DNA of 41,609 nucleotides, taken from the IMG/VR virus record IMGVR_UViG_2939152649_000003. One strand, 5' to 3'. A program made the translations under genes and the position numbers. How positions within the stretch are numbered: position 1 is the stretch's first letter; each line of letters starts with the position of its first letter. Shown piece after piece: positions 23,307 through 38,775 of this stretch. The DNA is from a virus (taxonomy: Duplodnaviria; Heunggongvirae; Uroviricota; Caudoviricetes). Below the pieces are notes generated by a model. That model was given only the letters and a program-made list of their open reading frames with translations. It was not told where the DNA came from and did no database searches.

Positions 23307-23583
23307 CCGCAACAGCCACTTTGATATCTGCCTGGGCTCTCTGTGACTCCAGTGCGATCTTGTTCTTTGCATTCTGGTTCGCCTCTGAAATGGCGTTGAT
23401 GATACTCACGGCCCGAATCACGTTCGCGGTGACAGCATTCGCGGTCTCAGCCTGCTGTTCTGCGCTATCGGCCCGCTCCTTTTCGCTACTGGCTTTGTCG
23501 CTGTAATACCATGCCGACCAGCACGCCCCGCCGAACAGGCAAAGGAGGAATATGGCAATCGCAATGATGTGACGAGCTTTCAT
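23191..23583 (-). CDS. Inner-membrane spanin (Rz-like)
   Basis: N-terminal TM helix (IIAIAIFLLCLFGGACW) followed by a coiled-coil region. ATGA overlap with the endolysin stop. Confidence 0.65.
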   Translation of the reverse strand: MKARHIIAIAIFLLCLFGGACWSAWYYSDKASSEKERADSAEQQAETANAVTANVIRAVSIINAISEANQNAKNKIALESQRAQADIKVAVADDDCARRPVPAAAANRLREYADSLRAGAGGAPAGEPDS

Positions 23584-24116
23584 TTATCGAGCCCCCAGCA
23601 TGCCAACGCGCTTTCTTGGTCGCGGCGTTCCACCTGACCGAAGCATCCGTTCTTCTGCCCCTTGGTTAGCCGGCAATCCCGGCCGCCATCTTTTATCCAC
23701 CAGCGGATCGCTTCGCATGCCCCTTTACGGTCACCGGCATTGATGCGCTTATAGAACGTCGAGGGGAAGCACTTACCGGGCCCGATGTTATACGGGCAGA
23801 AAGAAGCTATTCCGGCCTTTTGCGGTTCGGTCAGCGGCACCCTGATATTGCGTTCAACCCAGGCCAGCGCTTTATTTCGCTCAACGGCATTCACCTGGTC
23901 ACATTTGGCCTGCGTCAGCTTCATGCCCTGGCGAACTGGTTTACCATCTACCAGCGTGGCGCCGCGGCAAATAGTCCAGACGCCGCCACCGTCCTGATAA
24001 GCAATCAGGCTGTAGCCTTCCTTCTCATTCAGGAACTGATCGAGAATAACGGGCGCTGACGCACCGGCGAGGATAAGACCTAATACCGCAGCGCTAAGCT
24101 TTGATCTGTCAGCCAC
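23580..24116 (-). CDS. SAR endolysin (T4-lysozyme-like)
   Basis: Catalytic triad E-x8-D-x5-T (EGYSLIAYQDGGGVWT) preceded by a weakly hydrophobic SAR segment (LSAAVLGLILAGASAPVIL). Probable GTG start overlapping the holin stop (TAGTG). The longer ORF-track N-terminus is rejected. Confidence 0.8.
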   Translation of the reverse strand: MADRSKLSAAVLGLILAGASAPVILDQFLNEKEGYSLIAYQDGGGVWTICRGATLVDGKPVRQGMKLTQAKCDQVNAVERNKALAWVERNIRVPLTEPQKAGIASFCPYNIGPGKCFPSTFYKRINAGDRKGACEAIRWWIKDGGRDCRLTKGQKNGCFGQVERRDQESALACWGLDK

Positions 24117-24331
24117 TATTCCCCCCTGGCGGCTTTGCGCCGGTCCTCTTTGATTTTGAAATACAGGTTTGTCAGATACGTCAGCAGCCCGAACACCAGG
24201 CTGCCAAGCACACCAATGGCTGCCCACTGCGATGGTGACACCTGGTCAAGCAACTGCAGGCTCCAGTAACCAGCGTTAGTCGCTGATGCACCATAGGCGA
24301 TGCCAGTGGTTAGTTTTTCCATGCGTAACAT
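24116..24331 (-). CDS. Pinholin (phage 21 S21-like) with dual start
   Basis: 71-aa product [23 protein letters not shown]...[20 protein letters not shown] closely resembles S21 as recalled. M1 and M4 give the 71/68 antiholin/holin pair. Confidence 0.85.
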
Positions 24332-33307: not shown

Positions 33308-33526
33308 CTACTTTGGTAATCCGTCAGTGGGATTTGGATAGAGATCAGGGCGCAGCTCGTGGGGGGTTACGCCTGTCATTTTGAAAATCGGGAAGATATA
33401 GCTTGGCGGGACGATCCCTTGGTCACGATTCTTCCAATGACTTACAGACATACTCGTCACACCAAGCGCGATGCTGAGCTTTCTGGCAGAGCCAGCGGCT
33501 TTAATTGCTTTATCGAGTGCGGACAT
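33308..33526 (-). CDS. Cro-like HTH regulator (YdaS/DicC-like)
   Basis: 72-aa HTH protein (KLSIALGVTSMSVSHWK) divergent from the repressor gene. AGGAG RBS. Confidence 0.65.
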   Translation of the reverse strand: MSALDKAIKAAGSARKLSIALGVTSMSVSHWKNRDQGIVPPSYIFPIFKMTGVTPHELRPDLYPNPTDGLPK

Positions 33527-33555: not shown

Positions 33556-33618
33556 TAAACCACAGATTTATACTTCATGCAAACTTTGGATTTATTGCGT
33601 GCATAAACCAAATATTTA
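33556..33618. promoter_or_regulatory. Right operator region with three operator repeats and divergent promoters
   Basis: TAAACCACAGATTTA (33556), CAAACTTTGGATTTA (33580) and TAAACCAAATATTTA (33604) at exact 24-bp spacing. A TTGCGT-16-TACAAT promoter would start transcription at or near the repressor ATG. Confidence 0.55.
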
Positions 33619-33628
33619 CAATGACCAT

Positions 33629-34018
33629 ATGAGAAAAGAAGAACCCAACCTCGTTCTGGTGGAGCGCCTTACTGAGATCACTGATCGCGGCGTTACCAAA
33701 GCAGACATGGCAAGAATAGCTGGAGTCACCCCTCAGGCCGTAAACGGCTGGTTCAAAAAAGGCGTGATTAGTAAGAAATCGGCACTGGCCATAGCCGACG
33801 CTGTTGGTATTTCTGTCGCCTGGCTACTCGGTGAAGACGTTGGGGAGAAAGACGGTCTCAAACCGGACGAACAGCGTTTGCTCGAGCTCTACCGCCAGTT
33901 ACCGGAAGAAGAGCAGCAGAACATGCTCCGCATTTTTGCGCTTCGCCTGAAAGAGTTAGATGAGCTGTACGAGAAGTACATGAAGGGTCGGATTCGATCG
34001 CAAGGTGAGCAAACCTAA
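33629..34018 (+). CDS. DicA-like phage repressor (HTH, no peptidase domain)
   Basis: 130-aa product with an N-terminal HTH (ITDRGVTKADMARIAGVTPQAVNGWFKKG). The C-terminus (LKPDEQRLLELYRQLPEEEQQNMLRIFALRLKELDELYEKYMKGR) parallels DicA as recalled. ATG sits directly after the third operator. Confidence 0.75.
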   Translation: MRKEEPNLVLVERLTEITDRGVTKADMARIAGVTPQAVNGWFKKGVISKKSALAIADAVGISVAWLLGEDVGEKDGLKPDEQRLLELYRQLPEEEQQNMLRIFALRLKELDELYEKYMKGRIRSQGEQT

Positions 34019-34082: not shown

Positions 34083-34364
34083 GTGTCTAAAGAAACAACC
34101 GTCGAACTTATGCATCTTAATGATGTAATCGAAGCGAAAAATTTCATCGAGACCAATGCTGACGGTGTCGTAACAATCGGCACACAAAATGCCGGTTACG
34201 AAGTTTACAATTTTGTGTTCCTGAATAGCAGCCCGATCATCGGTACGGATAATGCGGATATAGTCGTCAAGGGCATGCAGCGAACCAAAGTTGTGTCTGT
34301 GACTTTAAGCAAACAAAAGGCTTATGATTTTTATCAATCCTTAAAAAGTATGTTTGAGGAATAA
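34083..34364 (+). CDS. Hypothetical protein A (immunity-operon accessory gene)
   Basis: 93-aa ORF with a GTG start 5 nt after a GGAGG RBS. AT-rich, co-oriented and 64 bp downstream of the repressor. Confidence 0.6.
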   Translation: MSKETTVELMHLNDVIEAKNFIETNADGVVTIGTQNAGYEVYNFVFLNSSPIIGTDNADIVVKGMQRTKVVSVTLSKQKAYDFYQSLKSMFEE

Positions 34365-34367
34365 TAA

Positions 34368-34892
34368 TTGATGGATGCGGCTCAATCATCTCTTGGTGAA
34401 GGGAAGTTATTGATTGCATATTCAGACCATAGCGGAGCTACAGTAGGCTTAGAGTTTTCATCAGTAGCTTCGAGCCAAGCAACCTTCCTTATGGGTGCTT
34501 GTAGTTTTGCCGCTTCGGATAAACAAAAACGGATTGTCACATCAGTTGCTATGGATGATACTGAAATCATTCATACGTCAACTGAAGATGGAGGTGACGA
34601 CATGGAAAAGAGATTGGCTATTCTTGAGGTTGAAGTTGCCCACATCAAGAAAGATGTTGCCGAGATAAAAAACACAGTTTCAAAAGTTGATACGACAGTG
34701 AATTCACTGGACAAAAATATGGCTGTAGTTTTGGAGAGGCTGTCTAGTATCAAAGAGTCTGTAGACAAAAAGCCCTCATCAGACACAGTGGACAAGAAAA
34801 TCTCTGATGCTAAATTGGCGATTCTCTTAGGTGTCCCTGCGATTATCGCCATTGGTACAGGGCTGTACAAAGCTTTTATGCACTTCTTTTAG
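34368..34892 (+). CDS. Hypothetical membrane-anchored coiled-coil protein B (XhlA/holin-like C-terminus)
   Basis: 174-aa product with a central heptad-like coiled coil and a single C-terminal TM helix (LAILLGVPAIIAIGTGLYKAFMHFF). Start is 4-7 bp after the stop of gene A. Confidence 0.65.
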   Translation: MMDAAQSSLGEGKLLIAYSDHSGATVGLEFSSVASSQATFLMGACSFAASDKQKRIVTSVAMDDTEIIHTSTEDGGDDMEKRLAILEVEVAHIKKDVAEIKNTVSKVDTTVNSLDKNMAVVLERLSSIKESVDKKPSSDTVDKKISDAKLAILLGVPAIIAIGTGLYKAFMHFF

Positions 34893-34966
34893 TCAGATTT
34901 GGTCAATACGCCTGAGTTATAAGGCTCTCAGCTACTAACTCTGTCGCCTTCCCCGAACCTTCTCAT

Positions 34967-34992
34967 CCCGACCACGCGTCGGGATTTTTTTT
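34967..34992 (+). terminator. Intrinsic terminator closing the repressor-A-B operon
   Basis: CCCGAC-CACGC-GTCGGG followed by ATTTTTTTT. Confidence 0.7.
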
Positions 34993-35031: not shown

Positions 35032-35095
35032 TAAACCTCAGATTTACAACTAACACTAACCTTAAGTTGACACATATATAAACCAGTGATTTAAT
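35032..35095 (+). promoter_or_regulatory. Early-left promoter (pL-like) with two operator repeats
   Basis: TTGACA (35067) - 17 bp - TTTAAT (35090). Operator copies TAAACCTCAGATTTA (35032) and TAAACCAGTGATTTA (35079); the second overlaps the -10. Confidence 0.6.
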
Positions 35096-35727: not shown

Positions 35728-35865
35728 CGAAAACCCCGCGCAAGGCGAGATTCACGTCCGGTGCCACCGACCAAAGTTACACCGGAATTTATACCAAACC
35801 AAAAAACATCCAATGGGCGCTATCTCTGGCCCGGGGATTCTAACACTCAAAAAAGAGGATCTCAC

Positions 35866-38775
35866 ATGGAATTTTTCCATCTGATAAAAGCCAGTCAGAA
35901 GTCTGGCAAGAAAGATGCAGTGATTTGGTTCACTGCGAAAAGTGTAGCGCGCGCCAATCTCCAACTCGATGTGGCACTGGAAGAAGCCGGAATTGAAGAA
36001 ACTGGCCGCGGTAAAGATTATGCCAAACCAATCCGCACCGATTTCCCGGTATATGACGACCTGCCGGAAGAAGGCGCAGTGGATTACACCTGGTGCAAAC
36101 GCTACGAACTGCAGAACGATGACCGCACCTGGATGCCAAAAGTCACAGCTGAAAACTCTGACGAGAAAACGGCTCAGACCGTTGATAGTCACATAACTAC
36201 TGAGTCAACGCTGCCAGAAACCGCTGGCATCACGCTGGACGAACACGACGACGACTCAACCCTCTACCCGGTAGTGCAGATGCCGTTTCGTAAGCAACTG
36301 CTTTCCCAGTTCACCGCCGACGAACTGCGCCACCACGTAACCCGCGAAGAGTACGAAGCTATCGGCGCGCTGGAGATGGACACTGATAACAGTTACGTCC
36401 AGAACTTGCTGTTAGCTGCTGAGAACTGCCCGGACGTGAAGGGTTACGACACCAAAGACCTGTGGCGCTACACCGATGCCATTCGCAAAGTGTTCAGCCA
36501 GGACAAGCGTCACGAACTCGCGCTGGTACTCCGTTTCACCAGAATGTGGGCGGCGACTGATTACATTGACCGTGGCATCCTGGCGCGTGAATGGGCTGCC
36601 GGTAATCACATCAGTAGTGTTCAGCGTACTGATTCCGGAACCAATGCCAACGGCGGTTACGTCACTGACCGTGGACCTGATGCATACCATACCCTTGACA
36701 CTCTCGATTTAGAGATTGCATGTGCCCTTCTGCCTATGGACTTCAACCACTTCGAGATCCCGGGCAGCATTCTTCGTCGCGCTAAAGAAATCGTGACCAA
36801 AAAAGAAGAACCGTGGAAATCATGGAGCAGCATTCTGCGCAATCAACCCGGCGTTCTTGGCGTTAACCGCACAGCTATTTTTAACCTGATACGTATCGCG
36901 CCGGAAAATATTCATCTAACTCCTGTCGCTCACCTGGAGTTTGTTAACCGGACCATGACTGCTGCGTTTAATGCTGCTGTTGAGTTATTGCCATTGCATG
37001 AAGCTGAGCCCGCAACACAGGAAATTCCCCAACCTGAAAGTAAGGAGTCTCCACGCAAACCCTTCTGCACTCACGAAGAGAACCTGCAACGCGTACGTGA
37101 AGAAGAAGCACGCCGCCGCGCAGAGGAAGCGACAGCACAACCACATAAAGCCGAACAAGAACTGGTTAAAAATGTCGGCAACGGAATATTCGATGTTACG
37201 GCTTTACTGCAGAACTCAGCAACTCATGGCACGAAACAGGCTACGGAAACCACCAGCAATGTGCAGGTTCAAGAAACTGTCAGTGATGAAAAAAATGTTG
37301 GTAATGAAATGCAGTCAGGCGAAAGCAGTCTGGAAACTGGTGAAGAGTCACATCCCGGCCAGCAGGCCGATGTAAACCAAAATACGGAATCTGTCGCTCA
37401 AAATAGCGATTCTGTAAACCAGACTGAACCAGTTTTGGCACACGTCGAGCCAGAGGCGCAATCTGACGAACAAGCTGTTTTTTACCCCGATTACTTCGAG
37501 CCTGGGCGCTATGAAGGTCTGCCGAACGAGGTTTACCACGCTGCCAACGGCATCAGTTCCACCTAGGTAAAAGATGCGCGCGTTTCGCTGATGTACTTCA
37601 ATGCGCGCCACGTTGAGAAAACCATCGTCAAAGAGCGCTCCTCAGTGCTGGACATGGGAAACCTGGTACATGCGCTGGCGTTGCAGCCAGAACAGCTCGA
37701 TGAAGAATTTAGCGTTGAACCCGTAATTCCGGAAGGTGCATTTACCACCACGGCAACGATCCGCGCGTTTATTGATGAGTACAACGCCAGCCTGCCAGCG
37801 CAACTGAGCGCAGACGATATCAAAGCTTTGCTGGATGAATACAACGCCACCCTGCCAGCGCTGGTGCCGCTGGGCGCTAGCCTGGATGAAACGGCGCAGA
37901 ACTATATGGCGCTGCCAGCTGAATTCCAACGTATCGATGCAGATCAGAAGAAGACAGCAACAGCAATGAAGGCGTGCATCAAAGAGTACAACGCCACCCT
38001 GCCAGCGCAGATTAAAACCAGCGGCAGCCGCGACGCACTACTCGAACAACTTGCGATTATCAATCCTGACCTGGTCGCGCAGGAAGCTCAGAAGCTGCAA
38101 CCGCTGAAAGTCTCTGGCACGAAGGCCGATCTGATTCAGGCCGTGAAGGCAGTCAAACCAGATGCAGTGTTCGCCGACGAGCTGCTCGATGCGTGGCGCA
38201 ACAACCCGGAAGGGAAAGTGCTGGTTACCCACCAGCAACTTGCCACCGCGCAGGCAATTCAGTCAGCACTGCTCTCGCACCCGACCGCAGGCATGCTGCT
38301 AACCCACCCGAGCCGCGCCGTTGAGGTGAGCTACTTTGGCTTTGACGAGGAGACGGGACTGGAAGTTCGTGTGCGCCCTGACCTTGAGATCGACCTAGAC
38401 GGCGTGCGTATCGGTGCTGACCTGAAAACCATCAGCATGTGGAATGTTAAGCAGGAAAGCCTGCGCGCCAGGCTACACCGGGAAATTATTGAACGTGATT
38501 ATCACCTGAGCGCGGCTATGTACTGCGAAACCGCAGCGCTGGATCAGTTCTTCTGGATTTTCGTCAACAAAGACGAGAACTACCACTGGATCGCCATCAT
38601 CGAGGCATCCGCTGAACTACTGGAGCTGGGTATGCTCGAGTACCGCAAAGCGATGCGCAATATCGCAACCGGATTCGACACAGGTGAATGGCCAGCGCCA
38701 ATCACTGCTGACTACACCGACGAACTGAACGACTTCGACCTGCGCCGCCTTGAAGCGCTGCGTACTCAGGCATAA
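35866..38775 (+). pseudogene. recE: RecE-like exonuclease VIII gene interrupted by one in-frame amber codon (37564..37566)
   Basis: ORFs 35866..37566 and 37591..38775 share one frame, separated by a single TAG. The stop falls in YHAANGISST*VKDA, aligned with the lambda-exo motif WH..RLGVITASEV. The PD-(D/E)xK core RPDLEIDLDGVRIGADLK lies downstream. Confidence 0.6.

Follow-up and report, generated by a model that had tools for sequence, protein, structure and literature searches.

Position, modular architecture and candidate internal start of a two-gene accessory cassette in an Escherichia coli prophage immunity region

Introduction

The interval between the repressor gene and pL of temperate phages houses lambda rexAB and BTP1 bstA, and cargo placed there is expressed in every lysogen. 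This cI–N interval has been described as a mosaic hotspot for accessory loci, or morons, such as rexAB and bstA (PMC7067206, PMC8585504). Here, we analyze two adjacent genes, which we call A and B, at positions 34083 to 34892 of a 41,609-nucleotide stretch of Caudoviricetes DNA (IMG/VR record IMGVR_UViG_2939152649_000003; the whole stretch is hereafter the window). An earlier note, made from the letters of the window alone, had placed the pair in a rexAB-equivalent slot and proposed a candidate uncharacterised exclusion or abortive-infection system, in which A senses an infecting phage and B acts on the membrane.

Among the closest described systems, lambda RexB has four transmembrane (TM) segments, and rexB is separately expressed from the pLit promoter. 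Lambda S105/S107 is a dual-start holin/antiholin gene. HK97 gp15, reportedly described by Cumby and coworkers in 2012, is said to be a small inner-membrane superinfection-exclusion protein encoded by a prophage moron. Last, XhlA is a small coiled-coil/TM protein that acts with a holin (PMC5589764).

Results

Genomic position of the A–B cassette

By tblastn of a phage collection, we found the A–B pair in HK544, VT1-Sakai, and phiSTEC801-Stx1a. The gene order of HK544 (pRM, lambda-type cI, A homologue, B homologue, tImm, oL3-oL1/pL, and N) puts the pair in the exact place of rexAB. VT1-Sakai, the Stx1 prophage of O157 Sakai, shares this arrangement but has another cI in front, and its pair corresponds to ECs2991/ECs2992. 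The assignment to a rexAB-equivalent slot is thus borne out by these phages. In the window, the cassette comprises the following features, each with its evidence in brackets:

34083..34364, plus strand: gene A (open reading frame, phrog_12039, selection, ECs2991 proteomics)
34371..34892, plus strand: gene B, long form of 173 amino acids, with N-domain, Gly linker, coiled coil, KKPS motif, and C-terminal TM helix (open reading frame, PHROGs, alignment, selection, Z3360 proteomics)
34371..34601, plus strand: N-terminal domain and Gly-rich linker of B, residues 1-77, co-varying with A (alignments, partner clustering, ratio of nonsynonymous to synonymous divergence, dN/dS, 0.12-0.30)
34590..34594, plus strand: internal Shine-Dalgarno-like GGAGG, 7 nt ahead of the Met78 codon (enrichment in homologues)
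34602..34892, plus strand: candidate B-short, 96 amino acids (coiled coil and TM helix), from an in-frame internal start (Met78 invariance, GTG variant, Pantoea forms, annotations)
34614..34772, plus strand: continuous heptad-repeat coiled coil, B residues 82-134 (heptad pattern, heptad indel, helix 77-132 in the AlphaFold2, or AF2, model)
34815..34868, plus strand: C-terminal TM helix LAILLGVPAIIAIGTGLY (Kyte-Doolittle maximum at residue 147, invariant alignment columns)

We assembled 122 loci with 54 distinct A/B combinations from genomes and IMG/VR, where the genome scan relied on an alignment of the coiled-coil/TM part of B (the C-module). Among 37 distinct proteins encoded directly upstream of the cassette, 30 carried a helix-turn-helix (HTH) domain of the HTH_3 family, and 22 also carried Peptidase_S24. 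These repressors include lambda CI, several LexA-like types, and a DicA-like type. A terminator-like hairpin was found within 220 nt 3′ of B in 42 of the 51 distinct related loci. The cassette is also AT-rich, as the earlier note had stated, with a GC content of 0.39-0.42 across the module versus 0.50-0.60 in both flanks.

The slot itself accepts alternative cargo. In other E. coli, identical repressor/ydaS/ydaT and ydaE/recE flanks enclose different genes, which in strain ET881 encode a 467–amino acid unknown protein with no PADLOC match and in strain AR_0118 comprise an HTH gene, yoaK, hicAB, and a gene for a 141–amino acid unknown protein (these two slots are, in one order or the other, loci L122 3756-5159 and L123 3733-5560). 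Together, the varied repressors, the cassette's own terminator, its AT-richness, and the alternative cargo place A–B in the positional class of prophage immunity-region moron cassettes.

Homologues of both proteins are expressed. The ECs2991 protein was detected in rumen-fluid cultures of O157 (PMC3936929), and Z3360, a homologue of B, was detected in EDL933 cell lysates and was moderately abundant in growing cells (PMC3210124). Both detections come from uninduced O157 cultures. They lend indirect support to the predicted expression of the cassette in the lysogen, although spontaneous induction may have contributed to them.

A variant cassette lies in a siphovirus tail region (L124 6652-7396; also L038, L041, L089, and L091) and consists of a 119–amino acid Cys-rich phrog_4293 partner and a 131–amino acid B-like protein. 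It follows a DUF6246 gene and precedes an antirepressor and a tape-measure gene, with major tail and chaperone genes on the other side.

Exchange of modules and co-variation of A with the N-terminal domain of B

An alignment of 26 homologues divided B into an N-terminal domain (residues 1-72), a Gly-rich linker, GGDD, which joins this domain to Met78, and the C-module. We found the same A and N-domain joined to three different coiled-coil/TM modules: that of this prophage (type 1), a second type in Klebsiella and Enterobacter, and a third in HK544 and Sakai. The type-1 C-module, in turn, occurred with 10 further N-extension clusters, each of which has a separate partner gene upstream. These N-extensions are shorter than the N-domain of this B and unrelated to it, and each lies behind an unrelated small gene. 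The alternative partners belong to phrog_4231 (87-91 amino acids), an 88–amino acid family, phrog_4293 (119 amino acids, with Cys pairs), and phrog_5893 (136-167 amino acids, with faint β-sandwich-type matches).

Clustering yielded 8 partner clusters and 11 N-extension clusters in only 11 pairings, and no N-extension type occurred with two partner types. The C-module follows a different pattern: that of this B is 73% identical to the C-module of L033, which has a different partner, but only 35-40% identical to that of HK544, which has the same partner. This incongruence between C-module identity and partner type places the recombination joint at the Gly linker and not at the A/B gene boundary. 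A profile search with the B N-domain returned two fragments only.

Both genes are under purifying selection, with pairwise dN/dS of 0.03-0.30 among homologues where dS is unsaturated; this range holds for A, the B N-domain, and the B C-module separately. We also observed that dS between cassette alleles is 0.6-1.0 in the B N-domain (34371-34601), lower than in A (34083-34364) and the B C-module (34602-34892), where it is mostly saturated. This difference may reflect differing recombination histories or synonymous-site constraints.

As a separate observation, the Pantoea locus L079 carries two different coiled-coil/TM genes in tandem beside an AraC-family gene, the first of which resembles the type-2 C-module and gives weak CCDC90-like and XhlA matches.

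A candidate internal start in B

The codon of Met78, at the head of the C-module, is preceded by a Shine-Dalgarno-like motif (GGAGGTGACGAC-ATG, 34590-34604). Met78 is invariant in all 26 aligned sequences, which have unrelated N-termini. GGAGG lies 5-17 nt before the Met78 codon in 28 of the 34 distinct homologous sequences, as compared to 9.0 expected from resampling of synonymous codons for the same amino acids, and at least one member of each of the 11 N-extension clusters carries it; this enrichment is partly accounted for by Gly-Gly codons, and the sequences are related by descent and represent about 11 independent lineages, both of which speak against too strong a reading of the count. 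In one E. coli lineage (L057/L088), the codon equivalent to Met78 is GTG, which is still a start codon. Pantoea encodes near-stand-alone versions of the C-module, with only nine codons upstream of the Met and no partner gene nearby. Annotators called the 96–amino acid form on 280 contigs. Last, a scan of the whole window for GGAGG-N5-9-ATG found a single occurrence on the plus strand, at Met78 of B, and six on the minus strand, four of which are annotated gene starts.

The invariant Met, the GGAGG excess, the GTG swap, and the near-stand-alone form point to two isoforms, and the purifying selection on the N-domain argues that the long form is also made. Thus, B probably yields two products, the 173–amino acid long form and the 96–amino acid B-short starting at 34602.

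Anatomy of B

The earlier note had described two codirectional open reading frames 64 bp after the repressor. Both exist at that distance, with 64 bp from the repressor stop to the start of A and 6 bp between A and B; its length of 174 amino acids for B, however, is better replaced by 173, starting at ATG 34371 rather than one residue upstream at TTG 34368, as the ATG is used by the Prokaryotic Genome Annotation Pipeline (PGAP) and in the HK544 alignment. A GAGG ahead of B overlaps the 3′ end of A, and the two genes therefore look translationally coupled. B matches two PHROGs of unknown function, phrog_12602 at 2.7e-54 (residues 1-147) and phrog_3556 at 3.2e-28 (residues 63-173).

In the AF2 model, the N-domain forms a β-hairpin, a helix, and a strand, with a predicted local distance difference test score (pLDDT) of ~66-70 in this part. 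The coiled coil comprises eight heptads, and 15 of 15 a/d positions are L/I/V/M in one register. A short family differs from this B by an indel of seven residues, exactly one heptad. The coiled coil is followed by an invariant K-P-S, a conserved juxtamembrane stretch, and the TM helix. B has one hydrophobic segment, residues 147-166 (Kyte-Doolittle 19-residue maximum of 1.96 at residue 147), and the TM helix ends seven residues ahead of the stop. The description of B as a coiled coil with a single C-terminal TM helix is thus confirmed.

Conservation within the family peaks in the KKPS juxtamembrane and TM stretch of the alignment and hints at a specific membrane interaction beyond simple anchoring. 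Because B lacks an N-terminal signal sequence, it is most simply a C-tail-anchored inner-membrane protein with its bulk in the cytoplasm. A lipoprotein reading of Z3360 (suggested in PMC3210124) was rejected for want of a signal peptide; the only hydrophobic segment of B is C-terminal. The Cys44 of B (MGAC) is not preceded by a hydrophobic stretch and is not invariant among homologues.

In E. coli KL53 (L126 1372-2956), an IS3 element has inserted in gene B, leaving a 119–amino acid product that is cut short within the coiled coil and lacks the TM helix. Such a truncation was found in 1 of 13 E. coli genomes carrying the full module, indicating that B is dispensable for the host.

Gene A

Gene A starts at GTG 34083, with GGAGGA 4 nt upstream, and encodes 93 amino acids. 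The PGAP version is shorter (84 amino acids from ATG 34110); we prefer the 93–amino acid form because its first nine residues are kept in homologues. The protein is 75% identical to ECs2991 of O157 Sakai and matches phrog_12039, of unknown function, at 1.6e-47. In contrast to B, it has no hydrophobic segment by Kyte-Doolittle analysis. A is predicted to be a small soluble protein, rich in β-strands and with a C-terminal helix. The absence of Pfam, NCBIfam, and PADLOC matches agrees with the earlier description of A as small, soluble, and of no recognisable family.

The family is tiny: an exhaustive HMMER search of 1.84 billion representatives returned 18 matches, mostly proteins of 85-103 amino acids with the same pattern. 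The few long matches are proteins with fibronectin type III (FN3)–type repeats (~1e-11) and are probably compositional. Against PDB sequences, A gave no match at E<=10. The top PDB folds for the A model were of the PC4/Sub1 type, which binds single-stranded DNA, including a phage T5 homologue; at E ~0.6 and a TM-score of ~0.4 they are non-significant, and we treat a PC4/Sub1-type fold of A as a lead only. An internal duplication, with A resembling the B N-domain, was considered and rejected, as a profile-profile comparison showed no relationship.

Searches for known families

A, B, the B N-domain, and 10 cassette relatives were scanned against Pfam, NCBIfam, PADLOC, and PHROGs; the only matches were to PHROGs without an assigned function or were subthreshold and at the level of coiled coils. 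The best Pfam match of B was SlyX (PF04102), at 24.5 bits against a cut-off of 30 and confined to the coiled coil, and was discarded; one source labels a B-type protein “coiled-coil protein SlyX”. XhlA (PF10779) did not match B at E<=1, while related C-modules scored 13.4-13.8 bits against a cut-off of 34.7. The resemblance to XhlA/holin-like effectors that the earlier note had drawn is therefore not sustained as homology, and of the hidden Markov model and Foldseek searches that it had advised, the Pfam XhlA search left B unmatched and none returned confident homology for A or B. PHROG “hemolysin” matches of B and its relatives were weak (1.4e-5 and 5.5e-6). No match of A or B to Rex proteins was found in Pfam, NCBIfam, or PADLOC at E<=1. 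The Tai tail-assembly-interference system was also set aside, because HK544 is merely a test phage in the Tai paper and the Tai genes are located elsewhere.

No functional study emerged from a literature search by locus tag, accession, and concept, which turned up only the two proteomic detections and a comparative genomic hybridization table. As no known defence family was matched in PADLOC either, the view of A–B as a candidate uncharacterised system stands.

Immunity-region layout and other features of the window

The window is a complete E. coli prophage, spanning from an invertase gene to an integrase that adjoins kch, and is 100% identical to E. coli strain NCTC11023. Around the cassette, the immunity region carries the following features:

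33308..33526, minus strand: divergent Cro/YdaS-like HTH gene, 72 amino acids, lytic-side regulator of the switch (Pfam YdaS_toxin, 50.9 bits, cut-off 30; phrog_35)
33556..33618, no strand: OR-like region with two copies of the operator-like motif TAAACCNNNGATTTA, at 33556-33570 and 33604-33618 (direct-repeat family D1)
33629..34018, plus strand: prophage repressor, 129 amino acids, HTH_3, without an S24 peptidase domain (HTH_3 28.5 bits, cut-off 23)
34965..34992, plus strand: intrinsic-terminator-like hairpin (34965..34985) and T-run to 34992, closing the repressor-A-B unit (top-ranked site of the region's terminator scan)
35032..35095, plus strand: OL/pL-like region with operator copies at 35032-35046 and 35079-35093 and the promoter TTGACA (35067-35072), 17 nt, TTTAAT (35090-35095) (repeat family and sequence reading)

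The 15-nt motif thus occurs in four copies arranged as two pairs, with a spacing within the pair of 48 nt on the OR side and 47 nt on the OL side. Because copies lie both upstream and downstream of A–B, the module is enclosed by OR- and OL-like operator sets. The earlier note had called the repressor DicA-like: HTH_3 is scored above the cut-off, but the NCBIfam DicA model gives 34 bits against a cut-off of 101, which makes this a loose label. The terminator and the pL-like promoter proposed downstream were both recovered. The hairpin has eight pairs, five of them GC, and was the best site of the scan, though its fold z-score is just −1.7. The TTGACA/TTTAAT promoter, whose −10 element is overlapped by the fourth operator copy (35079), was found by direct reading; the promoter scan misses it, as it demands an A at position 2 of the −10. 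Promoter-like matches inside A, which could serve B, were at chance level (5 found, 3.0 expected). From this layout, we infer that A–B is cotranscribed with the repressor in the lysogen and that transcription ends before OL/pL.

The repressor start is ambiguous. PGAP places it at GTG 33599, while the alternative, ATG 33629, lies ~10 nt after a TATTTA hexamer; if this ATG were used, the transcript could, speculatively, be almost leaderless, like that of lambda cI from pRM.

Two further regions of the window deserve mention. The region 1-2437 has a site-specific recombinase gene (minus strand, 1-549) next to gp53-like tail-fibre tip and tail-fibre assembly genes that are present in two inverted copies; this arrangement resembles the invertible host-range segments of Mu G / e14 P type. 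At 35761-38775, the RecE-like exonuclease is encoded by two open reading frames (601 and 394 amino acids) 24 nt apart, and PGAP also calls two genes, while related prophages (for example, L012) have one open reading frame of ~900 amino acids. The split may be a nonsense mutation or a genuine two-gene arrangement.

Discussion

From these sequence comparisons, we give about an even chance to the reading that A–B is a lysogen-expressed accessory (moron) cassette, in which B is made as two isoforms and A docks on the B N-domain, and which serves phage exclusion or abortive infection. Several features point to a conflict system, most likely of the superinfection-exclusion or abortive-infection type: a conserved effector-like module coupled to rapidly exchanged partners, the presence in two classical moron slots, the AT-richness, and cargo such as HicAB in the same place.

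In such a system, the repressor, A, and B would be transcribed together in the lysogen, with termination before OL/pL. B would be tail-anchored, with a long cytoplasmic coiled-coil stalk, probably trimeric, bearing the small N-terminal domain on which A would most likely dock. A and the N-domain would form an exchangeable specificity unit, and the coiled coil, juxtamembrane stretch, and TM helix a constant membrane-acting unit. A phage cue received by A and the N-domain may then shift the oligomeric state or the isoform balance of the membrane module, with the A-bound long form restraining the short form or the reverse. Protection could arise from exclusion at the inner membrane or from abortive infection through membrane damage; the membrane action might be the oligomerisation of TM helices into a pore or lesion, the block of an inner-membrane component needed for DNA entry, or the sequestration of a phage protein. 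The strict co-variation of A and the B N-domain is consistent with the scheme of the earlier note, in which A would be the sensor and B the membrane effector.

Several results weigh against this interpretation. Neither A nor B scored above the cut-off of any Pfam or NCBIfam family. In PADLOC-DB 2.0, A had no match, B had matches at the level of coiled coils only (LmuB, DruC, and JetA, E>=8.7e-4), and the relatives had none; sequence and fold searches gave no link to any validated defence or exclusion protein. The PDB sequences that matched B were all generic coiled coils (Lpp and Jun, for example). The structural models are poor, with shallow alignments yielding a pLDDT of 43 for A (six strands and a C-terminal helix) and of 58 for the whole of B, and Foldseek returned nothing at E<=0.001 for A against PDB and nothing for B against BFVD. 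A single TM helix is a minimal effector. The co-variation of A with the B N-domain could be plain linkage. Pantoea copies adjoin an AraC gene and a Rahnella copy adjoins a DUF3024 gene, outside prophage immunity regions. Last, the proteomic detections could in part reflect the spontaneous induction mentioned above.

An alternative, which we judge improbable, is that B and its partner tune the life cycle of their own prophage (lysis timing via the holin, induction, or the lysis-lysogeny bias) and are not directed at foreign phages. B-short has an XhlA-type architecture, with an N-terminal coiled coil and a C-terminal TM helix within ~90 amino acids, and the candidate dual start recalls holin/antiholin pairs. 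The weak PHROG “hemolysin” matches, the partnership of XhlA with a holin (PMC5589764), and a bias of the lysis-lysogeny switch by RexA (PMC11077077) also fit this alternative. However, Pfam XhlA is unmatched, and in the contexts examined no cassette lies beside holin or endolysin genes; in the window, holin and lysozyme are at ~23580-24331, ~10 kb from the module. Furthermore, the slot gives expression at the time of lysogeny rather than late, and the cassette is found behind at least 10 different repressor types, which argues that it is not tied to one switch.

Slightly more doubtful still is a role as a host-fitness conversion factor, in which a tail-anchored coiled-coil protein modulates membrane or stress physiology (compare ElaB/YqjD) with A as a cofactor. 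The expression in rumen-fluid-grown O157, the tail-anchored architecture, and the apparently nonprophage chromosomal context of some relatives would suit such a role; on the other hand, B has no match to DUF883 (ElaB) or another Pfam family, the cassette has a strong association with phage moron slots, and the extreme diversification and shuffling of partners and N-domains, while the membrane module stays constant, is what conflict systems typically show, unlike housekeeping or stress proteins. The least probable of the three is toxin-antitoxin–like addiction, in which B or B-short would be a membrane toxin neutralised by A or the long isoform, so that the prophage is stabilised and any anti-phage effect is secondary: a two-gene operon of a small soluble and then a small membrane protein, HicAB in the same slot of another strain, and the IS3-truncated B in 1 of 13 genomes, as could befall a costly gene, are in its favour, but there is no similarity to known toxin-antitoxin families, no relationship of A to an antitoxin fold can be detected, growing cells contain Z3360 in moderate abundance at no obvious cost, and Pantoea has versions of the C-module without a partner gene nearby.

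Returning to exclusion or abortive infection, a bolder and rather doubtful extension is that A–B is the first example of a class of defence cassettes that is widespread in enterobacterial prophages but has so far gone unrecognised. Such cassettes would be built on a trimeric, tail-anchored protein made as two isoforms, a long one with the docking domain and a short effector form, and swappable sensors would re-target this effector to different phages. If true, this class would cover the rexAB-replacing cassette of lambda-immunity phages and the cassette of the O157:H7 Stx1 prophage. The pair itself entered the databases with the Sakai genome, and the GenBank record of the HK544 immunity region lists it as conserved hypotheticals; what is new here is the family-wide modular architecture, the strict co-variation of partner and N-domain, the conserved TM core, and the candidate internal start. 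Because HK544, a lambda-immunity phage already in laboratory use, and the Stx1 prophage of O157 Sakai/EDL933 carry the cassette, its function is directly testable in existing strains. The constant coiled-coil/TM part, the swappable modules, and the probable internal start lead to falsifiable hypotheses on how a minimal single-TM effector is regulated, and the cassette family offers natural specificity variants for finding the trigger. Even if it is not anti-phage, B would still be an abundant, conserved, lysogen-expressed membrane protein of prophages of enterohemorrhagic E. coli.

Compared with known systems, A–B is closest in layout to lambda RexA/RexB. Both lie directly after the repressor and before tImm and oL/pL, with exact substitution in HK544, and both are two-gene units with the soluble protein first and the membrane protein second; the candidate internal start would even allow, as in lambda, the separate production of the membrane part. 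The two differ in that they share no sequence similarity, A has 93 amino acids as compared to 279 in RexA, and B combines one C-terminal TM helix with a coiled coil and is not polytopic as a four-TM protein would be. We know of no exclusion phenotype for A–B.

BstA of the Salmonella prophage BTP1 is likewise encoded by an accessory gene downstream of cI, which uses the repressor promoter, has its own terminator, and is found behind many repressors (PMC8585504). In contrast to A and B, to which it has no homology, BstA is a single large, DNA-associated, nonmembrane protein with an aba self-immunity element. XhlA, a protein of ~90 amino acids with an N-terminal coiled coil and a C-terminal TM helix, is matched in architecture by the 96–amino acid C-module; however, the score of B against its model is absent or, for relatives, far below the cut-off, the A–B module has an extra N-domain and a partner gene, and XhlA belongs to late lysis cassettes of Gram-positive phages (Bacillus PBSX-type) and not to an immunity operon.

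The tail-region variant of the cassette sits between tail-chaperone and tape-measure genes, which we take to be the position of the HK97 gp15 moron. The likeness to gp15 is one of slot and membrane type, with no homology known, and gp15 is encoded by a single gene. With lambda S105/S107, B would share the use of two in-frame starts in one gene to make two membrane proteins with a common TM part; here, the candidate starts are 77 codons apart as compared to 2, the long form brings in an entire extra folded domain, and the second start is predicted from sequence. Together, while A–B is by sequence unrelated to the characterised members, by position it is a variant of the known immunity-region exclusion and accessory modules.

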